Shown in pieces: positions 6,914-32,535 of a DNA stretch of 46,473 nucleotides (the first letter of the stretch is position 1; the number at the start of each line of letters is the position of its first letter). The DNA lies in the IMG/VR virus record IMGVR_UViG_3300045988_102028, positions 1-46,473 of that record. One strand, written 5' to 3'. The notes beneath the pieces were generated by a model. That model was given only the letters and a program-made list of their open reading frames with translations. It did no database searches and was not told the origin of the DNA. A program made the position numbers and the translations under genes. The stretch comes from a virus.

Positions 6914-7327
6914 TTACTTATCCGGGAATCGCTCCCTGATCTCGGCCTTTTTAGCCAGGTATAACGCCTTCTGTTCGTCGGCTTCGAGTATCTTGCCCTC
7001 GGCCAGGTAGCCTTCGTAGGCCATCAGATACTGGTCCGCCTCGGCACGGTAGGCCTCCTCGCGGAGTTGTTTGGGGGTCAGCGTCGCCTCCGGTTCCGGG
7101 GCGTATTCCTCCCAGCCGACACGGATGCGGTCCGCCTCCTCGGTGTAGACCTCCCGGTAATGCCGAGTAGGGTCGGAGGGTTCCGGCTGCTCGTCGCAGA
7201 CAACCTCCTTGTAGCCCAGGAGGATCAGTTTGTCCGGCCGCGGGTTGCAGACCAGCCCTTCGGCGGTCCGGATTGCATTGGGGGCGTACTTCAGACGCCC
7301 GCCGATCAGTTTTGCGTAGTTATTCAT
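6914..7327 (-). CDS. Hypothetical protein (137 aa), possibly a tail-fibre accessory or assembly protein
   Basis: Lies directly after the fibre gene; acidic, coiled C-terminus; function inferred from position only. Confidence 0.5.
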   Translation of the reverse strand: MNNYAKLIGGRLKYAPNAIRTAEGLVCNPRPDKLILLGYKEVVCDEQPEPSDPTRHYREVYTEEADRIRVGWEEYAPEPEATLTPKQLREEAYRAEADQYLMAYEGYLAEGKILEADEQKALYLAKKAEIRERFPDK

Positions 7328-19678: not shown

Positions 19679-20881
19679 TTAGGCAGCCGCAGATGCAGGC
19701 TTTTCGATGGCGGCCAGCACGGTTGCGAAGTCTGCATACACCATCGATCCGGCATCTATGGAGTTTTGATAGGAGTGCAGGCGCATTTCGGCGATAACCG
19801 TCACGAGGTTCTTGCGGAAGTCGTCGTTTTCGAATCCGTATTCGAGACGCAGATTCTCGTACGGACGGAGCATCCAGCGCGACGTATCCATCAGCAAGAA
19901 CTTCCCTTTTGTGATGTTGGCGGTTTCAACGATGGTGATGCCTGAAATCAGGGATTTCATCTCGGTTGTGAGATAGTGCCCTGTGGTGTCTTTCGTCAGA
20001 TCGATCATAGCGTTATCCACGGGGTTGATGAATAGCGTATTCGGTCGGAAATTCAGTGTCCGAAGTTGCAGGGCTGCGGCTCGAATGGCATCGGCGTAGT
20101 TAGGCATCTCGACCTTATCGTCGAGGTCCGTAATAGTATATCCTGCGGCACCGACGGTTACGCCCTTGATCTCGGCGCCAGAGCCTGTTCCAGTAAGAAC
20201 CTTTTCGTTAACGACAGACATCAGGTCTTGACGAAGAAGGCGGTCGATTTCGCTACGCATGAAGGGCGCATCGGCCAGCATTTCGGTAGAAACTTTGCAC
20301 GCAACGGCGATTTTCTTGGCCGTCGACGTCTCGGTCTCATATTCCCAATCTTTCAACGGTTTGAGAGCTCCCTCGGCGATGAATGCTGCGCCGCCTTCAC
20401 CGTCTACGCGGTTAACCCATACGATATTGGGCGAAGATGTAGAGCCTTTCACGAGGCGTGAGTAGATCGCGTCGGGTTCGGTGGGCGCCGCATGGATGGT
20501 ACGATCAATTTCGATATCCCAGATGTCGATAGCCGGTTTGGCGTTGGTTGTCGTCATCAGCGAGGCGTCTTTAAGTTTGAGTTCGGCGCCTGCCGACTGC
20601 CCTTTTTTCACAGCGTCGATATGGTCTTTATTCTCAATGAATGCCTTTATTTGGGCATCCAACGATTCGCCGGACTTACCTCCTGCGTTTTTGATAATGG
20701 AAATGGCTTCTCCTTGCGCTTTCATGGCATCCCGAAGCTCTTGGACGCTTTTGGCGTCGGGAAGTGTGTCGATCTTTTCGTTGAGAGCTTTATATTTTGC
20801 TTCGAAGACATCCGCGGAAACCATCCCGCCCTTGACATCGTTAGCGAACTGCTCCAACTCTTTTTTCAGTTCTTCGTTCAT
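19679..20881 (-). CDS. Major capsid protein (HK97-like)
   Basis: 400 aa; N-terminal coiled-coil (delta-like) region MNEELKKELEQFANDVKG...; directly follows the prohead protease. Confidence 0.75.
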   Translation of the reverse strand: MNEELKKELEQFANDVKGGMVSADVFEAKYKALNEKIDTLPDAKSVQELRDAMKAQGEAISIIKNAGGKSGESLDAQIKAFIENKDHIDAVKKGQSAGAELKLKDASLMTTTNAKPAIDIWDIEIDRTIHAAPTEPDAIYSRLVKGSTSSPNIVWVNRVDGEGGAAFIAEGALKPLKDWEYETETSTAKKIAVACKVSTEMLADAPFMRSEIDRLLRQDLMSVVNEKVLTGTGSGAEIKGVTVGAAGYTITDLDDKVEMPNYADAIRAAALQLRTLNFRPNTLFINPVDNAMIDLTKDTTGHYLTTEMKSLISGITIVETANITKGKFLLMDTSRWMLRPYENLRLEYGFENDDFRKNLVTVIAEMRLHSYQNSIDAGSMVYADFATVLAAIEKPASAAA

Positions 20882-21586: not shown

Positions 21587-22815
21587 TAGATCATGTATTT
21601 TTGAAGTTCATTTTGAGCATCCGGTAAAGACATTAATCCGGTCTGTACAGCTTGATTGAGAGCCGACACAAGAGAAACCATGCCTGCTGCCTGCTGTCGT
21701 TTGGCATCTTGGAATAACTCCAAGTGGTCGAAGAAAGGTTTGATGGCAAAACCTTCATTTCCGTATATACTGTTTAGTACGGACATAATATTTCGCGCGG
21801 AAGGAATAATGTCATTCGTATAAAATTCGAGTTTTGCCTCTCCAAAATTTGAATAAGTGCTACCTTCTACATCTAATAGGATGCTGGGTACTTGATAGGT
21901 ATAGGCAATATCCTTTTTGCAGTTGCGCTGGATGTCCGTTAATCCGAGGTCGGCGATAGTGGATGATATGGGAATATACGAGGCCTTGAAAGCTGTTATA
22001 GCATATTTTAGTCGTCCTTTGAGTACGCCGTATTTATTCAATCCTTCTTCAAGTTCTTGTTTATCCTTTTTTGTAAACGGCGAGGACAATGTAGTCGTTG
22101 GATCATCGGACATCAGCGAAATGATACCCAGCATTCCTCTGTTTACCAACAACTCATTTACGGCGTCGTATGAAGATATGAAGGTGTTAATAGGGTATTG
22201 AAGTGATTCCATACGGGATGTGGAGCCTCCCATATGATTGAGCGAATAGGTCACGTCGTTGACAGCAAACATGTTGTCTTTATCAATAGTGATCTGGTAA
22301 CCACTTCCGAGCGTTATGGTGTAGTCTTTGATGTCGGCATAAGGTGCGAATGTCGCCTCAATAATGGCTTGTTCGTTTTCTGTTACCATTAGATTGGGGA
22401 CGACGTATAACTCAAAATCGGACTCGAATCCTATAGGCGCTATCTTGACAATGTAGGCTTTGCCGAATATTTGCGAGAAGAATTCGATCATACAGACGAA
22501 TTCAGAAAGGGTTTGGTACTTGTTAGGCCTCTGCATCTTATTAAGCGCTTCGGGTCTTTGAATGTCATTCCCTTCATCGTCCTGTGCCCAATAGCGAGCG
22601 TCGGCAATTGCCGAAACCTTTTTAGTTATAATGGATGCAAGAATGGAACACGAGGCGAAAGCCGCCGCTTGTCCGTCAGGGGTCGAAGTATCAATGCCGC
22701 CGGAGCGAGTGCCGAACAATCTCAATACATCCCGGACATTAAGATTCAATGACTGGAACGAATTTTTATCGTTGCCACACTTGGCTATTCTCACGTTATA
22801 TCCAAAGAACTTCAT
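21586..22815 (-). CDS. Portal protein
   Basis: Start moved to MKFFGYNVRIAK (ATG 22815, ATGA overlap with the terL stop); 409 aa between terL and the protease. Confidence 0.65.
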   Translation of the reverse strand: MKFFGYNVRIAKCGNDKNSFQSLNLNVRDVLRLFGTRSGGIDTSTPDGQAAAFASCSILASIITKKVSAIADARYWAQDDEGNDIQRPEALNKMQRPNKYQTLSEFVCMIEFFSQIFGKAYIVKIAPIGFESDFELYVVPNLMVTENEQAIIEATFAPYADIKDYTITLGSGYQITIDKDNMFAVNDVTYSLNHMGGSTSRMESLQYPINTFISSYDAVNELLVNRGMLGIISLMSDDPTTTLSSPFTKKDKQELEEGLNKYGVLKGRLKYAITAFKASYIPISSTIADLGLTDIQRNCKKDIAYTYQVPSILLDVEGSTYSNFGEAKLEFYTNDIIPSARNIMSVLNSIYGNEGFAIKPFFDHLELFQDAKRQQAAGMVSLVSALNQAVQTGLMSLPDAQNELQKYMI

Positions 22816-24035
22816 GCTGCGATATAATTTCGGAACACTGTAGTTGTTACGTATCGTGCGGCGTCCCAAAGGTGATTATTCTTGTCTACGGGTTTATTGA
22901 TCGTAATGCCGTTTACTGCATCCCATACATAGGTATTGGCTTCATTACGCATATTTTTGGTTTTGACGCAATGGATGCGGAAATTCTTCATGTAGGAAAT
23001 ACCCGTAGTAATACTGTCTTGGAGTTTTTTGGCCTTGATGACATTAAGGCCTCGCATCTGGAGAGATCGAACCATGCCTTCGGGGTTTTTGGCATATTTG
23101 TCTGCGCTATCAGCAATAGCATATCCTTCAGAACCAAGAATTGGAGCTACTATTTGATAAAGCAAGTCAGGGTCGTCCACCGGAGAATAGAACAGCTCAT
23201 GCAGGAACAAGTCTCTGCCTCGAACTCCTACATGAATAATGGCCGTCGGATCATTCGTAAATCCAAAGTCAATACCGTAAGCGGTATATTCCAAATCGTC
23301 CGGGAACTCGTCTATCCAAGTTATATTGGGATAAACCAAGCCTTCTTGTGCCGCGCGTTCGCCAAGTCCGTAAACCTTCCATCGGAAGTCGTCTGCGGTT
23401 CCAGCTGCAATATTTTCGGGTGTCGGTTCATAGCTTTCAATAGTTTGCCTGACGCTGGGAGGACAGAAGGGGTTATCCTTGTAAGTGGTCTTGGTGAAGA
23501 TCGTGTCGGGCTGACCTTCCATCTCGAAAACCCAATGCTCCGTGTATTTGGGATTCCAGTCGCCGATGATCATTGTAGTGCAGCGCATCGTGATATTGTT
23601 GAACTGCGCTTTAGAAATGTCGTCCAGCATCTCGTTGAAGTAGATGATGTCGCAGTCGTGGCCCTCTTTCACGTCCATCTTGTCAAGGCCACGGAAACGA
23701 ATAATGCTGTCTCCGATATGATACTCGGGAAGTATCTTTTCGCTGTGCATACTGTCGGGGTCATAAATACCCCGTGCCATAAGCTTCTTTTTGAAATCGT
23801 CGAGGGCCTTCTCCTTGCAATCTTGCAACGTGGCGCGGTAAACATATATTTTATAGGCTCGGTCTCCGATAGCGCAAATGTCATAAAGGAAATCGAATGT
23901 ATCGAATGTCTTACCCGAACGAGAGCTGCCTTCGTTGAAAACACGCAGAACGACACCGGTGTTGCGGTACTTATGAAAGAAGTACCACATAATCTTATAC
24001 ACCTTGCCTCTATATGTCCGAGCATCAATTTCCAT
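22812..24035 (-). CDS. terL: Terminase large subunit
   Basis: Start moved to MEIDARTYRGKVYK (ATG 24035, overlaps the terS end); Walker-A-like NEGSSRSGKT; conserved position. Confidence 0.8.
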   Translation of the reverse strand: MEIDARTYRGKVYKIMWYFFHKYRNTGVVLRVFNEGSSRSGKTFDTFDFLYDICAIGDRAYKIYVYRATLQDCKEKALDDFKKKLMARGIYDPDSMHSEKILPEYHIGDSIIRFRGLDKMDVKEGHDCDIIYFNEMLDDISKAQFNNITMRCTTMIIGDWNPKYTEHWVFEMEGQPDTIFTKTTYKDNPFCPPSVRQTIESYEPTPENIAAGTADDFRWKVYGLGERAAQEGLVYPNITWIDEFPDDLEYTAYGIDFGFTNDPTAIIHVGVRGRDLFLHELFYSPVDDPDLLYQIVAPILGSEGYAIADSADKYAKNPEGMVRSLQMRGLNVIKAKKLQDSITTGISYMKNFRIHCVKTKNMRNEANTYVWDAVNGITINKPVDKNNHLWDAARYVTTTVFRNYIAA

Positions 24036-24546
24036 CCTTATTCGTTGAATTGATGGTTTGCTTACCGATAGACTGGATGATGGATGCCGCTGCCTCATCT
24101 ACCGTAAAGGTGACAGCAGGGACCTGTGCGATCTCCTTGCCGTTGGTGGTCACATCCTGACGGTCGGCAAGTCCTTGAAGGCGGGCAACTATATTCGGAT
24201 TATAGGCACCAATAAGAGCGCCTTCGATCTGGGAATTAGCGAAAGCTGTTCGCGCGCGCGTTGTGACGCTCAAAAACTCCTCTTGTCTCTCGTATTCTCG
24301 GAATGTATTTTCGACAATATCTGCAAATACACAGAAGCCAACCAGCGTAAGCGGCCTTTCGGTTGGAACGGGGATAATTTCCCCTGCCGACACTTTGTTA
24401 ATGGACAAAGGATGCTCCTTGGCCCATTCGACGTATTCCTCAAACTTGGCTTCAAGGGCTTCGGGGGTATATGCACGAGGGCGGCCCACTTTGCGGGTGG
24501 GCTTGCTGTCGGTTGTCGTCTTGGTTCCTTCCGTTCTCTTTGCCAT
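24025..24546 (-). CDS. terS: Terminase small subunit
   Basis: Start moved to MAKRTEGTK (ATG 24546). GRPRAYTPEALEAKFEEYVEW...PLTLVGFCVF matches the common TerS N-terminal pattern. Confidence 0.7.
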   Translation of the reverse strand: MAKRTEGTKTTTDSKPTRKVGRPRAYTPEALEAKFEEYVEWAKEHPLSINKVSAGEIIPVPTERPLTLVGFCVFADIVENTFREYERQEEFLSVTTRARTAFANSQIEGALIGAYNPNIVARLQGLADRQDVTTNGKEIAQVPAVTFTVDEAAASIIQSIGKQTINSTNKDGN

Positions 24547-28898: not shown

Positions 28899-29624
28899 AT
28901 GGAAACAAATTACAAAGAGGTAAAAGACAGCCTTCTGTCTTTCGGGAAAAGCCATTCGGCCTGCCAACATGAATACAAACGCCTTTATGCGGCGGAAAGC
29001 GTAGAGAGTGTTATGGAGGTTGTCAAAGACAATTTTTCTTGGTGCTGTCAGTATAAAGACTTTGCGGATGTTTTGATGGCGCATCGGGATCAGTTTGCCG
29101 AACACAAAATTTGGATCAATACCTCCGTAGAAATCAATGAAGGCATCGGATACCTGCTGACGACAGAGGGCGAATTTAACGCCACGAGCCTGGAAACCTC
29201 GACGATCAACGCCCGGAGCTGGGGAACCTCGACGATCAACGCCCGGAGCTGGGGAACCTCGACGATCAACGCCGAGAGCAGGGAAACCTCGACGATCAAC
29301 GCCGAGAGCTGGGGAACCTCGACGATCAACGCCACGAGCCGGGGACCCTCGACGATCAACGCCCGGAGCCGGGAAACCTCGACGATCAACGCCCGGAGCC
29401 GGGAAACCTCGACGATCAACGCCGAGAGCTGGGAAACCTCGACGATCAACGCCCGGAGCTGGGAAACCTCGACGATCAACGCCGAGAGCTGGGGAACCTC
29501 GACGATGATTCTACTCACATCCACTATTGAGTGCCAAGTAAATAATAGCAGTATTGCTCGATACATCGCCGAAAATAGGGTTGTATTCGCAGACGGTTCA
29601 ATGAAGTTTGAGAGGCGAAAGTGA
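28899..29624 (+). CDS. Tandem-decapeptide repeat protein (TSTINA-x-S-x-x, about 11 copies)
   Basis: 241-aa ORF with a unique N-terminal domain followed by ARSWGTSTIN-type repeats. Confidence 0.7.
   Translation: METNYKEVKDSLLSFGKSHSACQHEYKRLYAAESVESVMEVVKDNFSWCCQYKDFADVLMAHRDQFAEHKIWINTSVEINEGIGYLLTTEGEFNATSLETSTINARSWGTSTINARSWGTSTINAESRETSTINAESWGTSTINATSRGPSTINARSRETSTINARSRETSTINAESWETSTINARSWETSTINAESWGTSTMILLTSTIECQVNNSSIARYIAENRVVFADGSMKFERRK
29179..29506 (+). repeat. About 11 head-to-tail copies of a 30-bp unit (g[ga]aacctcgacgatcaacgccNNgagcNgg)
   Basis: Read directly; the differences fall at the same three codon positions in each unit. Confidence 0.9.
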
Positions 29625-29632
29625 TAAAATAG

Positions 29633-29829
29633 GAGTGTGTGGCGGAATGGTAGACGCTATTAAGCAGTAGCCCTCTGCTCTTACCTCAGACCCGTAGGAA
29701 ATGACGGGTGTCGGCTCAGGCGAATCAGAGCAAACAAACGCATAACAGGAGGTACTGGTGCAATTCCAGTGTTAAAAGGAGCGAATGAGCAGCACAATGG
29801 GTATGCAGGTTCGAATCCTGCCACACTCC
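29633..29829 (+). ncRNA. tRNA-Leu-like gene with a branched insert of about 110 nt in place of the anticodon arm
   Basis: 5' GAGTGTG-TG-GCGGAATGGTAGACGC; 3' GCAGG-TTCGAAT-CCTGC-CACACTC-C; 147 nt in between. Confidence 0.6.
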
Positions 29830-30140
29830 CAAAATAGCAGCCCGCAAGGGTTAGGGGTTTGATCGCTGGCAATAACCCCAACCGCAAGGCAGAAAGCGAT
29901 CCGGCAGTCGGAGCCACACCATTCCGACCGACGCTTGCAACGTAATTGCACTATGTGCCGCCATTGAGAAGATGCGGCCGCGAGTAAGCAAATAGCCGAA
30001 AAGCGCGAAAGACTGGCATAGGCTCCGAAGCTGCGATGACATGAGCGGCGAGGACCACCGGGATAAATAACGCATTATTATGCCCGGTGTGGTTTGAATG
30101 CACCTATCCGGGCTCCAATGCGGGCCGAGTGCACACGTTC
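29830..30140 (+). ncRNA. ORF-free, GNRA-rich, pseudoknotted structured RNA candidate
   Basis: GCAA, GAAA and GAAG loops on GC stems. GGGGTT/AACCCC hairpin whose loop GATCGCT pairs with AGCGATC 28 nt downstream. 7-bp CACCGGG/CCCGGTG helix. Confidence 0.4.
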
Positions 30141-30323
30141 TTTCAATCTATTGCATCTCTGTAATTTAAGTTTAGTGGTTATCACATTCCGCGCAAAGCC
30201 CGCTTTTATGCCCTGATGGCGTCCGTATGGATAACCAGTATCATCTGGCGTATACCACTATTCATTCGGTGAGCCTTGCCTTCGATGGCGTCAGGGCACA
30301 AAGAACCTTAAAATATCAAGACT

Positions 30324-30572
30324 ATGGAGAAAGATTTGAGAAAGCCACAGGCCTGCATCCTGGCCTACTTCATCAGAGGCGGTACGCTTACAGTCCAGAA
30401 AACGTTTCGGATGTTTCGCACAACAGAGCTGCGGAAGATCGTCACACGCCTCCGGCGCAAAGGCTATATCATCGTCGGCGACTGGTGTTACAGCCACGAC
30501 GCCGACAGAGGGCGGGTTGTCCGCTACAAAGAGTATCGTATGATTGTTCACCCTGAAATTGCACAAGTATGA
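30324..30572 (+). CDS. Small winged-helix-type DNA-binding protein (82 aa)
   Basis: CILAYFIRGGTLTVQKTFRMFRTTELRKIVTRLRRKGYII fits the small wHTH pattern (IL..L..G.LT...A...F....L..RI..LR..GY.I). Confidence 0.55.
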   Translation: MEKDLRKPQACILAYFIRGGTLTVQKTFRMFRTTELRKIVTRLRRKGYIIVGDWCYSHDADRGRVVRYKEYRMIVHPEIAQV

Positions 30573-30826
30573 AAAACAAGACATTCAGACCCCGGAAATT
30601 TCTGGGCATCGACTTCACGTCGAGGAAACGGTATCGCGCCGAGATCACGAGGCTGGAGCGTATGAATGCTGACCTTCAGCGAAGCTTCGCCGCGGGAGAA
30701 AAGGACCGATGTGACCTTCTGAAGAAGTGCGCAGCGGAACGCAACCTGCGTCTGGCCGCCGAGAACGAGCTGGCGAAATTCCGACGTAAGAGAGGTGCAA
30801 AGGGCCGGTTCGTCAAAATTGGATAG
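30569..30826 (+). CDS. Coiled-coil basic protein (85 aa)
   Basis: ATGA overlap with the upstream gene. Confidence 0.5.
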   Translation: MKNKTFRPRKFLGIDFTSRKRYRAEITRLERMNADLQRSFAAGEKDRCDLLKKCAAERNLRLAAENELAKFRRKRGAKGRFVKIG

Positions 30827-30886
30827 AAAACAGGTCGCGGACGCCTCAAAGTTCGCACGTTTGCATTTGGAGATAGTAGTTTGCGT

Positions 30887-30920
30887 CGCCCGTCATCCGT
30901 GAGGCCCGCGGGCGATATTT
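30887..30920 (+). terminator. Hairpin plus T-run after 30569..30826
   Basis: TCGCCCG-(14 nt)-CGGGCGA followed by TATTTT. Confidence 0.5.
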
Positions 30921-30921
30921 T

Positions 30922-31035
30922 GGAGGGTTAGCCCAGCGGATAGAGCGGTGCAGGAATGCGAAACAGAAACAATCGGGGGTTGCGAGACCCCGCATTTCCG
31001 GGCGCAGGACGGGAGTTCGAATCTCTCACCCTCCG
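30922..31035 (+). ncRNA. tRNA-shaped gene with the anticodon arm extended into a rod, an A-rich internal loop and an apical hairpin
   Basis: GGAGGGT-TA-GCCC-AGCGGATA-GAGC ... GGGAG-TTCGAAT-CTCTC-ACCCTCC-G, with 64 nt between the D and T arms. Confidence 0.6.
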
Positions 31036-31181
31036 CAACCCCTTTGTTGATGATGCAAGTAGAGCGACGATAGCGCAAGGGATTATTGCCGATTGCGCGG
31101 CAATGGCAAAGCGGAACAGACGCTTGACTCTATCGGACAGATTATACGAAAGCATCTGACGGCCGGGAAAGACCGGCACTT

Positions 31182-31252
31182 TGAGCTATAGTGTAACGGC
31201 AACACACCGCCCTTTGGAGGCGGTACTCCCGGTTCGAATCCGGGTGGCTCAA
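31182..31252 (+). tRNA. tRNA-Gln (anticodon UUG)
   Basis: TGAGCTA-TA-GTGT-AACGGCA-ACAC-A-CCGCC-CTTTGGA-GGCGG-TACT-CCCGG-TTCGAAT-CCGGG-TGGCTCA-A. Canonical 71-nt cloverleaf with the U1:A72 pair typical of bacterial tRNA-Gln. Confidence 0.85.
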
Positions 31253-31431
31253 CAGGGTACAATCCCTACGTTGTTAGTTTGATCGAGAGACCATCCAATC
31301 AACGGAAGCGAAAGAGAAGGTGTGACCTTCGAATATCCGACGCCGCGTGAAGCATAGTAGCAAGGCCGAGGCGGACGCCCACGAAACGGGCAAAGAACGC
31401 AAACCGGCGGTGCGGAATCCGTGTCGCCACC

Positions 31432-31464
31432 GCGGGGGATCGTCAGAAGTCCCCCGCATCTTTT
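31432..31464 (+). terminator. Rho-independent terminator closing the tRNA/RNA island transcript
   Basis: GCGGGGGA-TCGTCAGAAG-TCCCCCGC followed by ATCTTTT. Confidence 0.7.
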
Positions 31465-31485
31465 GAAATCAACAATCATCGATAT

Positions 31486-31650
31486 ATGCAGAACTATATC
31501 AAGGAACTCAAGGATAAGGGGCTCGTTCCCCTGCGCATAGACCGCAATACGGTGCTGTTCGTCCCTCCGGATAAAGCCAACGACAAGTACAGGGCCGAAT
31601 ACCTCAAAAACGCCGAGAGGTCTCGGAGGATGGCATTGAATTTGGGGTAA
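31486..31650 (+). CDS. Small protein (54 aa)
   Basis: Below the ORF-track cutoff; translates MQNYIKELKDKGLVPLRIDRNTVLFVPPDKANDKYRAEYLKNAERSRRMALNLG. Confidence 0.4.
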   Translation: MQNYIKELKDKGLVPLRIDRNTVLFVPPDKANDKYRAEYLKNAERSRRMALNLG

Positions 31651-31663
31651 ACGATAAGAGCTC

Positions 31664-31693
31664 AAAAAAAAGTGGAGTGTCCTACCACTCCAC
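31664..31693 (-). terminator. Terminator for the small minus-strand gene
   Basis: Minus strand reads GTGGAGTGG-TAGGA-CACTCCAC followed by TTTTTTTT. Confidence 0.6.
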
Positions 31694-31706
31694 GGGCGGC
31701 ATCTGT

Positions 31707-31844
31707 TTACGCTACGCTATCAACAGGTACCCATATACAAAAGGCCTTGGCCTTTTTGGGATATATTACTTTCCCATTTTTACGGATGTACTTGCAAAAT
31801 ACGAGCTTGCACAACTTGCCGTTTACGAATTTAGACGATTCCAT
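31707..31844 (-). CDS. Small basic protein (45 aa)
   Basis: AAGGAGG lies 8 nt upstream of ATG 31844; translates MESSKFVNGKLCKLVFCKYIRKNGKVIYPKKAKAFCIWVPVDSVA; followed by a terminator. Confidence 0.45.
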   Translation of the reverse strand: MESSKFVNGKLCKLVFCKYIRKNGKVIYPKKAKAFCIWVPVDSVA

Positions 31845-32110
31845 TAAAAACACCTCCTTTCTTTGTGGCCTTTCGGCCTAAAATCTTGCGTCCTACCGCA
31901 AGAGAAAACCCGGTAGTAGGATACCGGGTCTTTTGAAACATTGGAGCAAAGTAATAAAGCGAAAGGGGTTTGTTACTATGTCCTCGTCTAAATTCGTTGC
32001 AAATATAAGTGTATTGAACTACACATGCAACAAGTATAAAAAATTAGATACTTTGGCTTTACTTGATATAGGTAAAATCTATTTTACAATTACTCTAAAA
32101 TATTAATGTC

Positions 32111-32527
32111 ATGAAATTATTCACACACAAAGGGCCTTGGGACAACAATGGCACTACTTATTATGCTACCGGCTGGATTGCAATCGTCGCAGTTACCTGC
32201 TCCATCATCGCCATTTGTATGGTGGGATGCCCTTCGTACAATGTATGGCAGCAAGAAATGAGCGGCAAAGCGGAATTTGCCAAAGCTGAACAAAACCGCC
32301 GGATCAAGATCGAGGAGGCGAAAGCCAATCTGGAAGCCGAAAAACTCAATGCACAAGCCGAGATTGAACGGGCGAAAGGTGCGGCCGAGGCTATCCGCAT
32401 TGAGAACGGATCGATCACTCCGACCTACATTCAGTATTTATGGGTGCGCCAACAGAACAACGTCCCTAACAAGGTGGTCTATATTCCTACAGAAACTAAT
32501 CTGCCTATCTTGGAGGCAAAGAAATAG
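32111..32527 (+). CDS. Membrane protein with an SPFH/flotillin-like coiled region (138 aa)
   Basis: TM helix WIAIVAVTCSIIAICMVG, then AEQNRRIKIEEAKANLEAEKLNAQAEIERAKGAAEA. Confidence 0.6.
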   Translation: MKLFTHKGPWDNNGTTYYATGWIAIVAVTCSIIAICMVGCPSYNVWQQEMSGKAEFAKAEQNRRIKIEEAKANLEAEKLNAQAEIERAKGAAEAIRIENGSITPTYIQYLWVRQQNNVPNKVVYIPTETNLPILEAKK

Positions 32528-32535
32528 CAAAGGTT

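Follow-up and report, generated by a model that had tools for sequence, protein, structure and literature searches.

The 46,473-nt stretch of DNA analysed here (the window; positions 1 to 46,473 of IMG/VR virus record IMGVR_UViG_3300045988_102028) is essentially the entire genome of a temperate, siphovirus-like phage, and this report concerns one of its genes, e1, which is 197 nt long and has the shape of a tRNA without an anticodon arm. The gene begins 8 nt past the stop codon of an open reading frame (ORF; 28899-29624) and abuts a conserved structured RNA that we call RNA X; two further genes, e2 and e3, lie downstream, and all three share one design, as a first-pass annotation made from the letters alone had proposed (Table 1). 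Judged by its sequence, e1 is a non-decoding, tRNA-shaped RNA gene, in which a conserved chassis holds a 145-nt insert that replaces everything between tRNA positions 26 and 48.

Table 1. Features of e1 and of the surrounding island, in window coordinates.
Feature	Position	Strand	Remarks
e1, acceptor 5' strand	29633-29639	+	GAGTGTG; pairs 7/7 with 29822-29828
e1, D arm	29642-29657	+	GCGGAATGGTAGACGC, leucine type; U8 G9 precede; G18 G19, A14 and A15 present
e1, insert ("cargo")	29658-29804	+	U26 (T 29658), 145 lineage-specific nt and U48 (T 29804); substitutes for anticodon arm and variable arm
e1, T arm	29805-29821	+	GCAGG TTCGAAT CCTGC, canonical T loop
e1, acceptor 3' strand	29822-29828	+	CACACTC; 7/7 complement of 29633-29639
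e1, discriminator and trailer	29829-29832	+	C73 and CAA
RNA X	29833-30144	+	conserved structured non-coding RNA, ~310 nt; starts directly after e1
e2	30922-31035	+	class-I tRNA chassis; 50-nt block in place of 9 central anticodon-arm nt; Rfam tRNA 37.2 bits
tRNA-Gln(TTG)	31182-31253	+	canonical; the island's only decoding tRNA; ARAGORN; Rfam 62.4 bits
Terminator-like hairpin	31432-31457		
e3	32536-32632	+	class-I tRNA chassis; anticodon arm is an imperfect hairpin of ~16-18 bp with a 6-nt loop; Rfam tRNA 50.3 bits

The acceptor stem, D arm and T arm of e1 are those of a tRNA, conserved loop nucleotides included, and the third base pair, read from the sequence, is G3-C70. Of the features of the leucine-type family described below, e1 shows the D arm, insert, T arm, acceptor pairing, U48 and U or A at position 26. 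In the register of a tRNA, e1 contains no anticodon arm (5-bp stem, 7-nt loop, U33 and R37; positions 27-43). The first-pass annotation had described a tRNA-Leu-like gene without a canonical anticodon arm, which is borne out, and the acceptor, D arm, T arm, discriminator and strings that it quoted all read exactly as given. Its figure of about 147 nt between the two halves also holds (29658-29804; positions 26-48), but the replaced region is not ~110 nt long, as it had supposed; it comprises the full 147 nt and spans both the anticodon and the variable arm. In relatives that carry other inserts, the e1 acceptor stem is either identical or has co-varied (GAGTGCG/CGCACTC). The discriminator C73 departs from the A73 of the family majority, as it does in other alleles on GAGTGYG chassis. 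The N-CAA that follows all three genes was noted correctly by the first-pass annotation, yet it is no mark of the design, because CAA often trails tRNA genes in these phages, following 56% of the expanded and 22% of the normal-sized tRNA-shaped genes in the collected loci.

We conclude that the e1 chassis is no chance arrangement, given that a tRNA-shape scan of our own (T arm, 7/7 acceptor, U8, GG in the D loop, D stem) returned 747 matches in the fetched loci (2.47 Mb) and not one once these had been shuffled. Applied to the window, the same scan found exactly four genes: e1 (196 nt), e2 (113 nt), tRNA-Gln (70 nt) and e3 (96 nt). Default ARAGORN called the tRNA-Gln alone in the window and passed over e1. 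The Rfam tRNA model (RF00005) does not match e1 even at E<=10.

Genes of this kind are widespread. We searched IMG/VR with patterns joining a leucine-type D arm to a T arm over 95-170 nt, scanned GTDB genomes too, and defined family members by the D arm TGGYGRAAY(T)GGTAGACGC, 46-162 nt without an anticodon arm, a T arm, and a 3' strand pairing at 6-7 of 7 positions. Once canonical tRNA-Leu genes had been set aside, viral contigs and contigs of metagenome-assembled genomes (MAGs) yielded no fewer than 106 distinct elements of the leucine type whose D and T arms lie 46-162 nt apart, which agrees with the earlier suggestion of a family rather than one decayed tRNA. The GTDB matches lay on MAG contigs of Pedobacter, Mucilaginibacter, Rikenellaceae, Melioribacter, Peregrinibacteria and Clostridia, and in a Rhodocytophaga isolate genome. 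The D-arm string of e1 is itself common to canonical bacterial and phage tRNA-Leu genes and to at least 106 insert-bearing viral elements.

The D arm and the T arm were the only elements prescribed in the scans, which leaves acceptor pairing, U48 and A73 free to serve as independent tests. For an unbiased set of non-canonical leucine-type D arms (n=118), we compared the 7 nt after the first downstream T arm with the 5' strand and found 7/7 pairing in 99 and 6/7 pairing in 11, against 9.6% at 7/7 in a permutation null, with 33 different acceptor stem sequences among the paired elements. The discriminator was A73 in 84 of 99 and CAA followed in 55 of 99; position 74 was almost always an encoded C, although an encoded CCA was rare (5/139). 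U48 was present in 76 of 79 insert clusters, while T accounts for 26% of insert bases, N26 was U or A in 73 of 79, and the D-loop and T-loop consensus of the family is intact. On the strength of the pairing, U48 and N26 data, we regard the core of U8-A14, A15-U48 and G18 G19 with the T loop as kept, and positions 26-48 as replaced. A 5-7-5 hairpin in the canonical register is no commoner in family inserts than in shuffled sequences, for which reason a giant variable arm beside a retained anticodon arm was rejected. With the register left free, 11 of 79 inserts contain a 5-7-5 hairpin having U33 and R37, as against 8.4% of shuffles, and this makes the decoy for anticodon nucleases that had been considered for e1 unlikely.

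No case of a normal anticodon arm was seen on AGTCAGG/CCTGACT, the commonest chassis in the family. Canonical tRNA-Leu genes of the same loci start with GCC or GCG and none has the AGTCAGG stem, which argues that the chassis-plus-insert genes form a lineage of their own and are not randomly broken tRNA-Leu genes. Many members reside in tRNA arrays of large phages, beside tRNAs and genes for transfer-messenger RNA (tmRNA), and these arrays also contain long "tRNA" matches of 94-122 nt on non-leucine chassis. Short AGTCAGG-chassis forms were seen in IMG/VR loci L009/L021 and L026, with 33-43 nt between D and T arms and aberrant anticodon regions; ARAGORN assigned a 4-nt anticodon "atgg" to one and Glu(ctc), on a leucine chassis, to the other. 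These forms may be intermediates between decoding and non-decoding genes. In the cultured jumbo phage SonariX of Enterobacter (L110, PQ898399), two unannotated tRNA-shaped genes (1456-1535 and 1541-1650) stand beside annotated tRNAs, one with a 9-nt "anticodon" loop and the other with a long aberrant middle and the end ACCA. A lead in phage S-H35 turned out to be a normal unannotated tRNA-Leu. Two leucine-type chassis, in L085 (~6971-7122) and L276 (~707-866), enclose a nested tRNA-like unit with D-arm-like and T-arm-like hairpins of its own.

Inserts and chassis are combined freely within the family. The 111 elements compared fall into 84 insert clusters, with at least 48 different inserts on the AGTCAGG chassis and at least 3 on GAGTGTG. 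Conversely, one insert may sit on different chassis: that of L111 is also found on a GGGGAGG chassis in L120, and the inserts of L006/L029 and of L037/L065/L098 likewise occur on differing acceptors. The largest subfamily (L001; seven distinct sequences aligned) shows compensatory double changes in 8 of 47 predicted pairs, mostly in insert helices, and keeps the loops AGACGUAAGCGGAC, UUGCAA and AAAUGGAAGAGAAAA invariant, from which we conclude that at least some inserts are selected structured RNAs.

The same exchange can be followed among close relatives of the window phage. An identical 82-aa protein (ORF 30324-30572) is encoded by the window, by six independent assemblies with identical e1, and by three loci (L326, L327 and L329) whose identical chassis encloses a 95-nt insert unrelated to that of the window and whose RNA X differs in its 5' third. 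L326 matches the window at 95.5-97.8% identity in the flanks and at 97-98% in e2 and e3, yet its insert cannot be aligned. By this comparison, the change of the e1 insert is a cassette-like allelic replacement and not gradual divergence. Such replacement in near-identical phages suggests a role in host interaction or counter-defence.

RNA X is ~75% identical to its relatives and contains a long invariant core, GACTGGCATAGGYTCCGAAGCTGCGATGACATGAGCGGCGAGGACCACCGGG. It has compensatory changes in several helices, 12 of its 60 predicted pairs varying on both sides (for example GATCGCT/AGCGATC versus GGTACTCT/AGAGTATC). It matches no Rfam family, and its core has no match in GTDB species genomes. 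With the core as a probe in metagenomes (31 metagenome loci), we found a tRNA-like element ahead of RNA X in nearly all metagenome and viral loci with upstream sequence. The slot occupied by this element is plastic. Its T arm and 3' acceptor strand are invariant in nearly all relatives (L135/L137 differ in both), and its other parts occur in several forms: a 158-161-nt insert on an identical chassis (L111 type, at least 20 contigs), inserts of 70 nt and 53 nt on a chassis that has GGTGTAG and A73, and a different D arm with a different insert (L159; L164/L170). One sub-lineage has tRNA-Gln(TTG) directly after RNA X (L133, L140, L202). RNA X is itself modular, with the 5' third swapped in L326/L329 and a long extra block present in L140/L146.

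For the e1 insert, the first-pass annotation had drawn a branched fold. The helices it quoted exist as strings, TTAA occurring at 29660-29663 and at 29772-29775, and three of them, ACCCGT/ACGGGT, ACCTC/GAGGT and ACTGG/CCAGT, are retained in the minimum free energy (MFE) folds of e1, with or without tRNA constraints. The TTAA/TTAA closing helix and the local AGCAG/CTGCT hairpin are unused in these folds and have neither thermodynamic nor covariation support. At E<=10, the insert matches nothing in Rfam. Searches of IMG/VR, the 31 metagenome loci, 80 protein-anchored loci and GTDB genomes returned no homologue of it, and exact-protein look-ups led only to clonal copies. More generally, none of the inserts tested matches any Rfam family; gathering-threshold scans covered the whole window and 13 loci, and scans in E-value mode covered 29300-33000 and two other inserts, which gave no ribozyme or other family match at E<=5.

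The other two tRNA-like genes of the island pass the Rfam tRNA threshold only by way of a local insertion, of 50 nt in e2 and 34 nt in e3, where 9 are expected. The gene e2 is 97.8% conserved in L326, and its insert recurs in L151/L162 at 81%. In L164 (2411-2494), L165 (1078-1161) and L166, the e2 slot holds a class-II tRNA, called Ser(ACU) by ARAGORN and bearing a C.U mismatch at 31-39; given that this tRNA shares the e2 acceptor stem and T arm, the interior of e2 is swapped between relatives as well. The gene e3 begins 8 nt past the stop codon of the ORF at 32111-32527, just as e1 does behind its own upstream ORF. Its fold has a z score of -3.43, it is 94-97% conserved in L164-L170 and L326, with a more diverged copy in L149, and substitutions in relatives improve its helix (GGTGGAGA to GGCAGACA opposite TGTCTGCC).

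Three further stretches of the island drew attention. The ORF upstream of e1 contains, at 29150-29510 (+), tandem repeats of ~30 nt (GGGAAACCTCGACGATCAACGCCSRGAGCT) that encode a repeated GNLDDQRxE-like peptide, and this repeat region is the sole difference among otherwise identical assemblies of the window phage. Between the tRNA-Gln and the terminator-like hairpin, a non-coding stretch (31254-31457, +) is ~78% conserved and could be a further structured RNA or a processed 3' trailer. Downstream of e3, positions 32650-32850 carry GCCAAACT(T/C)(T/C)CC motifs in direct and inverted orientation with long hairpins; the region, which surfaced only through weak matches to miRNA models, is ~70% conserved in relatives, heads the block of recombination genes (RecT, YqaJ), and may be an operator or origin-like region.

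Elsewhere in the window, a tyrosine integrase of Bacteroidota type lies at 228-1505, the structural genes run leftward (large terminase, 22812-24098; portal; major capsid protein, 19679-20881; tape measure), and a rightward early region from ~28.9 kb encodes RecT, a YqaJ-like exonuclease and a replication initiator. A human gut metagenome assembly (L321) is 100% identical to the window across the 5.2 kb compared, and all close relatives of the phage come from human gut samples. The nearest terminases of cultured phages belong mostly to phages of Bacteroidota, at 30-36% identity, the single best being that of a Rhodobacteraceae phage (39.5%); a gut member of the Bacteroidota is the probable host. 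A blastn comparison with cultured phages returned no region related to the window locus. The commonest protein cluster near the family members occurs in just 11 of 62 loci, and this absence of a dedicated partner protein nearby points to host factors.

We propose, with about even confidence, that the tRNA chassis of e1 is processed by host RNase P, RNase Z and CCA-adding enzyme, punctuates the early transcript, and displays an exchangeable RNA module. This proposal draws on the intact acceptor/T minihelix and elbow of e1, on its place between an ORF and RNA X, and on a bacterial precedent (PMC4201824). On this view, e1 would belong to an early operon that this temperate gut phage transcribes rightward, and the tRNA-maturation enzymes of the host could recognise it, with RNase P cutting at G1, RNase Z or 3' exonucleases trimming past position 73/74, and the CCA-adding enzyme completing the end. 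Excision would punctuate the polycistronic transcript, releasing the mRNA that lies upstream and liberating RNA X at its 5' end. The excised RNA would be a nuclease-resistant, L-shaped carrier presenting the insert where an anticodon arm would point, and the insert would be the exchangeable working part that binds some protein or RNA.

In agreement with this proposal, the conserved chassis corresponds to the tRNA half with the L-shaped elbow and the acceptor/T minihelix, and we infer that this half is read by RNase P, by RNase Z, by the CCA-adding enzyme and, in the case of most members, by leucyl-tRNA synthetase (LeuRS). A bacterial precedent exists for processing: in M. smegmatis, RNase P cleaves the tRNA-like domain of YrlA, whose acceptor stem has 7 bp, and the domain acquires CCA in vivo (PMC4201824). 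LeuRS needs A73 and the core of U8-A14, G18-U55 and G19-C56, the anticodon arm being dispensable (PMC2377443), and most family members, having A73, might be leucylated. Leucylation of e1 itself is unlikely, because it has C73 and an A73C change lowered leucylation 48-fold in Aquifex aeolicus (PMC2377443). Going further, and tentatively, phages might carry a natural, recombining system of tRNA-chassis cassettes, in which the conserved top half of a tRNA would recruit the enzymes by which the host matures and protects its tRNAs and would be a universal carrier for a large repertoire of structured RNA modules of fast turnover, exchanged among related phages like alleles for counter-defence or host takeover. 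Seen this way, the window might hold three such carriers together with the ~310-nt structured RNA X in one early operon, which we put forward with the same reserve.

Several observations weigh against the proposal that e1 displays a working module. Folded alone, the e1 insert reaches -37.8 kcal/mol (z = -0.53), and 58 of 200 shuffles fold equally well. Beyond clonal copies, it has no homologue in 330 fetched loci, and covariation or purifying selection can therefore not be demonstrated for it. Antisense matches to the phage genome are chance matches of 11-13 nt, and no cognate-specific complementarity between an insert and the 5' domain of its RNA X was found. Across the family, only 26 of 106 single-sequence folds have a closing helix that encompasses 70% or more of the insert, which indicates no uniform mode of attachment to the chassis, and the conservation of the chassis is partly imposed, given that the collection was seeded by sequence patterns. 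Finally, some relatives have only the acceptor/T-arm minihelix before RNA X (L166-L169), and others have a chimera of an e2-like 5' half and the e1 3' half, with a broken acceptor stem (L151/L162), so that the insert must be dispensable for the phage. It is because the e1 insert is clonal only, unremarkably stable, without complementarity and missing in these variants that recombination debris is the main rival. Only the minihelix would then matter, as an RNase P/Z signal for RNA X, and the insert would be filler, left when ectopic recombination among the several tRNA-like genes of the phage scrambled the interior of the slot. The minihelix-only slots and the T-arm-joined chimeras suit this explanation, as do the near-invariance of T arm, 3' acceptor strand and RNA X in the lineage and an e1 insert that is thermodynamically ordinary and without relatives. 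We nevertheless hold it to be unlikely, as filler would not retain a perfect 5' acceptor strand, D arm and U48 over 84 unrelated inserts. Moreover, inserts have been swapped whole for other long sequences and not eroded, the same insert has been retained on different chassis, and one insert family has compensatory changes and invariant loops. The role in punctuation that we propose is also in keeping with the minihelix-only variants and with the tRNA-Gln that closes RNA X in some lineages. Alternatively, the chassis could be all that counts, e1 being a tRNA mimic that acts through its acceptor/elbow half and merely tolerates an expansion; such an RNA could be charged with leucine for a non-decoding use, or could titrate or decoy some factor that recognises the acceptor end or the elbow of tRNAs, such as LeuRS, modification enzymes or acceptor-targeting toxins. 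Indeed, the conserved parts (A73 in the majority noted above, U8-A14, A15-U48, G18 G19 with U55 C56) are the recognition set of LeuRS, for which the anticodon arm is dispensable (PMC2377443), the AGTCAGG acceptor hardly varies over many phages, and C74 is encoded almost always and CCA almost never. However, e1 has C73, e2 and e3 are built on non-leucine chassis, so that leucine identity is not general to the design, an insert of 50-160 nt is superfluous for a pure decoy, and the covariation and invariant loops of one insert family argue that the insert matters. In all its variants, we consider a function confined to the chassis distinctly unlikely.

The direct adjacency of e1 and RNA X, with CAA as the sole spacer, and their linkage in about 40 loci raise the further prospect of a single RNA of ~510 nt with a tRNA-like 5' domain, and in L326/L329 the insert and the 5' third of RNA X have both been replaced. 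The first-pass annotation had envisaged such a tRNA-like module of a larger RNA, and it was right that e1 adjoins one; each, however, occurs without the other, RNA X lacking any tRNA-like unit in L138 and L146, and leucine-type elements of other phages standing in tRNA arrays without RNA X. With no cognate-specific complementarity found between inserts and the 5' domains of RNA X, and with a complete acceptor stem and discriminator in e1, which is what 3' cleavage acts on, we regard a single RNA as very improbable. Least credible of all is an intron-containing tRNA-Leu(UAA), self-spliced or protein-dependent. Run with introns permitted, ARAGORN -i does call e1 Leu(taa) with a 110-nt intron and an anticodon loop UUUAAAA, in keeping with a D arm of leucine type, and it calls e2 Gly(tcc) with 43 nt and e3 Ser(gga) with 23 nt. 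Yet the e1 model comes at the cost of the D stem, its anticodon stem is weak (A.G, U.G) and its 22-nt variable region is left unpaired, and the calls are inconsistent over 57 relatives, 21 giving none and 36 spreading over 15 amino-acid identities, with intron sites that shift even within one insert subfamily. Bacterial tRNA-Ser requires a long class-II variable arm, and e3 has none. No anticodon-arm or variable-arm exons are present, since three alleles on the same chassis (those of the window, the L111 type and the L329 type) have no common sequence adjacent to the D arm or the T arm, and this speaks against the spliced tRNA that had been entertained for e1. To our knowledge, 110-147 nt also lies under the size of known group I introns. 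Models of group I introns and other ribozymes gave no match in 29300-33000 at E<=10, and the bulge-helix-bulge motif was not systematically searched for. These findings leave an intron extremely improbable.

Known RNAs resemble e1 in part. Its nearest natural precedent is RNA C of phage T4 ("species 1", rnaC; L244, NC_000866, 70908-71046), a stable phage RNA of ~139 nt encoded in a tRNA cluster. The 3' end of RNA C has the architecture of the e1 family (CCGGG-TTCGAAT-CCCGG, an acceptor-like CGTTTCGT, A and a CAA trailer), and RNA C has no anticodon function and a role that is still unknown (PMC3014915). Unlike e1, it shows no clear 7-bp acceptor stem or D arm in its MFE fold, and it has neither sequence similarity to the e1 family nor evidence of insert swapping. 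YrlA-type Y RNAs of bacteria and phages, which mimic tRNAs and are partners of Rsr/Ro60, share with e1 the D-arm, T-arm and acceptor-like modules and the lack of decoding. Their topology is reversed, however: the ends of a Y RNA form the Ro-binding stem on the "anticodon" side and its acceptor is closed by a loop, whereas the ends of e1 form the acceptor stem. This identity was rejected for e1, which has no match to it in Rfam, and no TROVE/Ro60 protein was found among the 30 window ORFs scanned (all those of at least 400 aa included). In tmRNA, as in e1, the two ends come together in a tRNA-like acceptor/T domain that encloses a long internal region, and tmRNA genes occur in the same large-phage loci. 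In contrast to tmRNA, e1 has a full leucine-type D arm and is only 197 nt long, and tmRNA was rejected in view of 0 genes from ARAGORN -m, no match to the Rfam tmRNA clan, and G3-C70 rather than G3.U70. In sum, the Infernal and Rfam check that the first-pass annotation had called for produced no group I, tmRNA, YrlA or other family for e1. The group I-intron tRNA-Leu(UAA) of cyanobacteria and plastids has conserved exons with an anticodon stem-loop, a fixed U34/A35 insertion site and a catalytic core of at least 200 nt. It shares with e1 leucine-type D and T arms split by a long insertion in the anticodon region, but its exons, fixed site and catalytic core are not found in e1. Nor is e1 an attP remnant of a tRNA-integrating phage, because the integrase gene lies ~28 kb away; both tRNA halves are present in e1.

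Processing signals and engineered carriers offer a second set of parallels. In MALAT1-mascRNA, the TMER RNAs of gammaherpesvirus MHV68 and the tRNA punctuation of mitochondria, tRNA-shaped units recruit RNase P/Z and thereby release neighbouring RNAs. As in these systems, e1 is a tRNA-shaped unit that would lie inside a longer transcript, between an ORF and RNA X; unlike e1, they are eukaryotic or organellar and have no large insert in their tRNA-like units. The mascRNA model reached only 18 bits in 29300-33000, against a gathering threshold of 42.5 bits, and did so on e3, not e1. Closest in layout is the engineered tRNA scaffold, reportedly devised by Ponchon and Dardel for producing recombinant RNAs in bacteria, in which the cargo takes the place of the anticodon arm. 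Here, too, acceptor, D and T arms are kept, the rationale being correct processing and nuclease resistance, but the scaffold is a laboratory design. We know of no description of a natural, recombining counterpart.

Rfam 15 contains no family that covers chassis-plus-insert RNAs, and our literature search for such phage elements yielded only generic mentions of tRNA-like candidates in viral metagenomes and no prior description. A 2023 survey lists "tRNA or tRNA-like" candidates from IMG/VR and does not describe the chassis-plus-insert design (PMC10690425). If confirmed, the e1 family would represent an apparently undescribed kind of tRNA-mimicking non-coding RNA with an unusual, natural chassis-plus-cassette organisation. 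It also marks a gap in annotation, given that a widespread class of phage RNAs, with at least 106 leucine-type members plus other chassis types, escapes tRNA finders and Rfam. The family may help to explain the "stable RNAs" of the T4 tRNA cluster, a puzzle of 50 years' standing, and the conservation of the LeuRS identity set in most members raises the question of whether non-decoding RNAs are aminoacylated during infection. If our proposal is correct, phages would have invented the "tRNA scaffold" long before biotechnology did, and the at least 84 unrelated inserts would constitute a ready library of trans-acting small structured RNAs in bacteria, including gut Bacteroidota, a group in which little is known of RNA-based regulation or of phage counter-defence. 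The replacement of cassettes in near-identical phages provides a direct experimental handle on host range and escape from defence.

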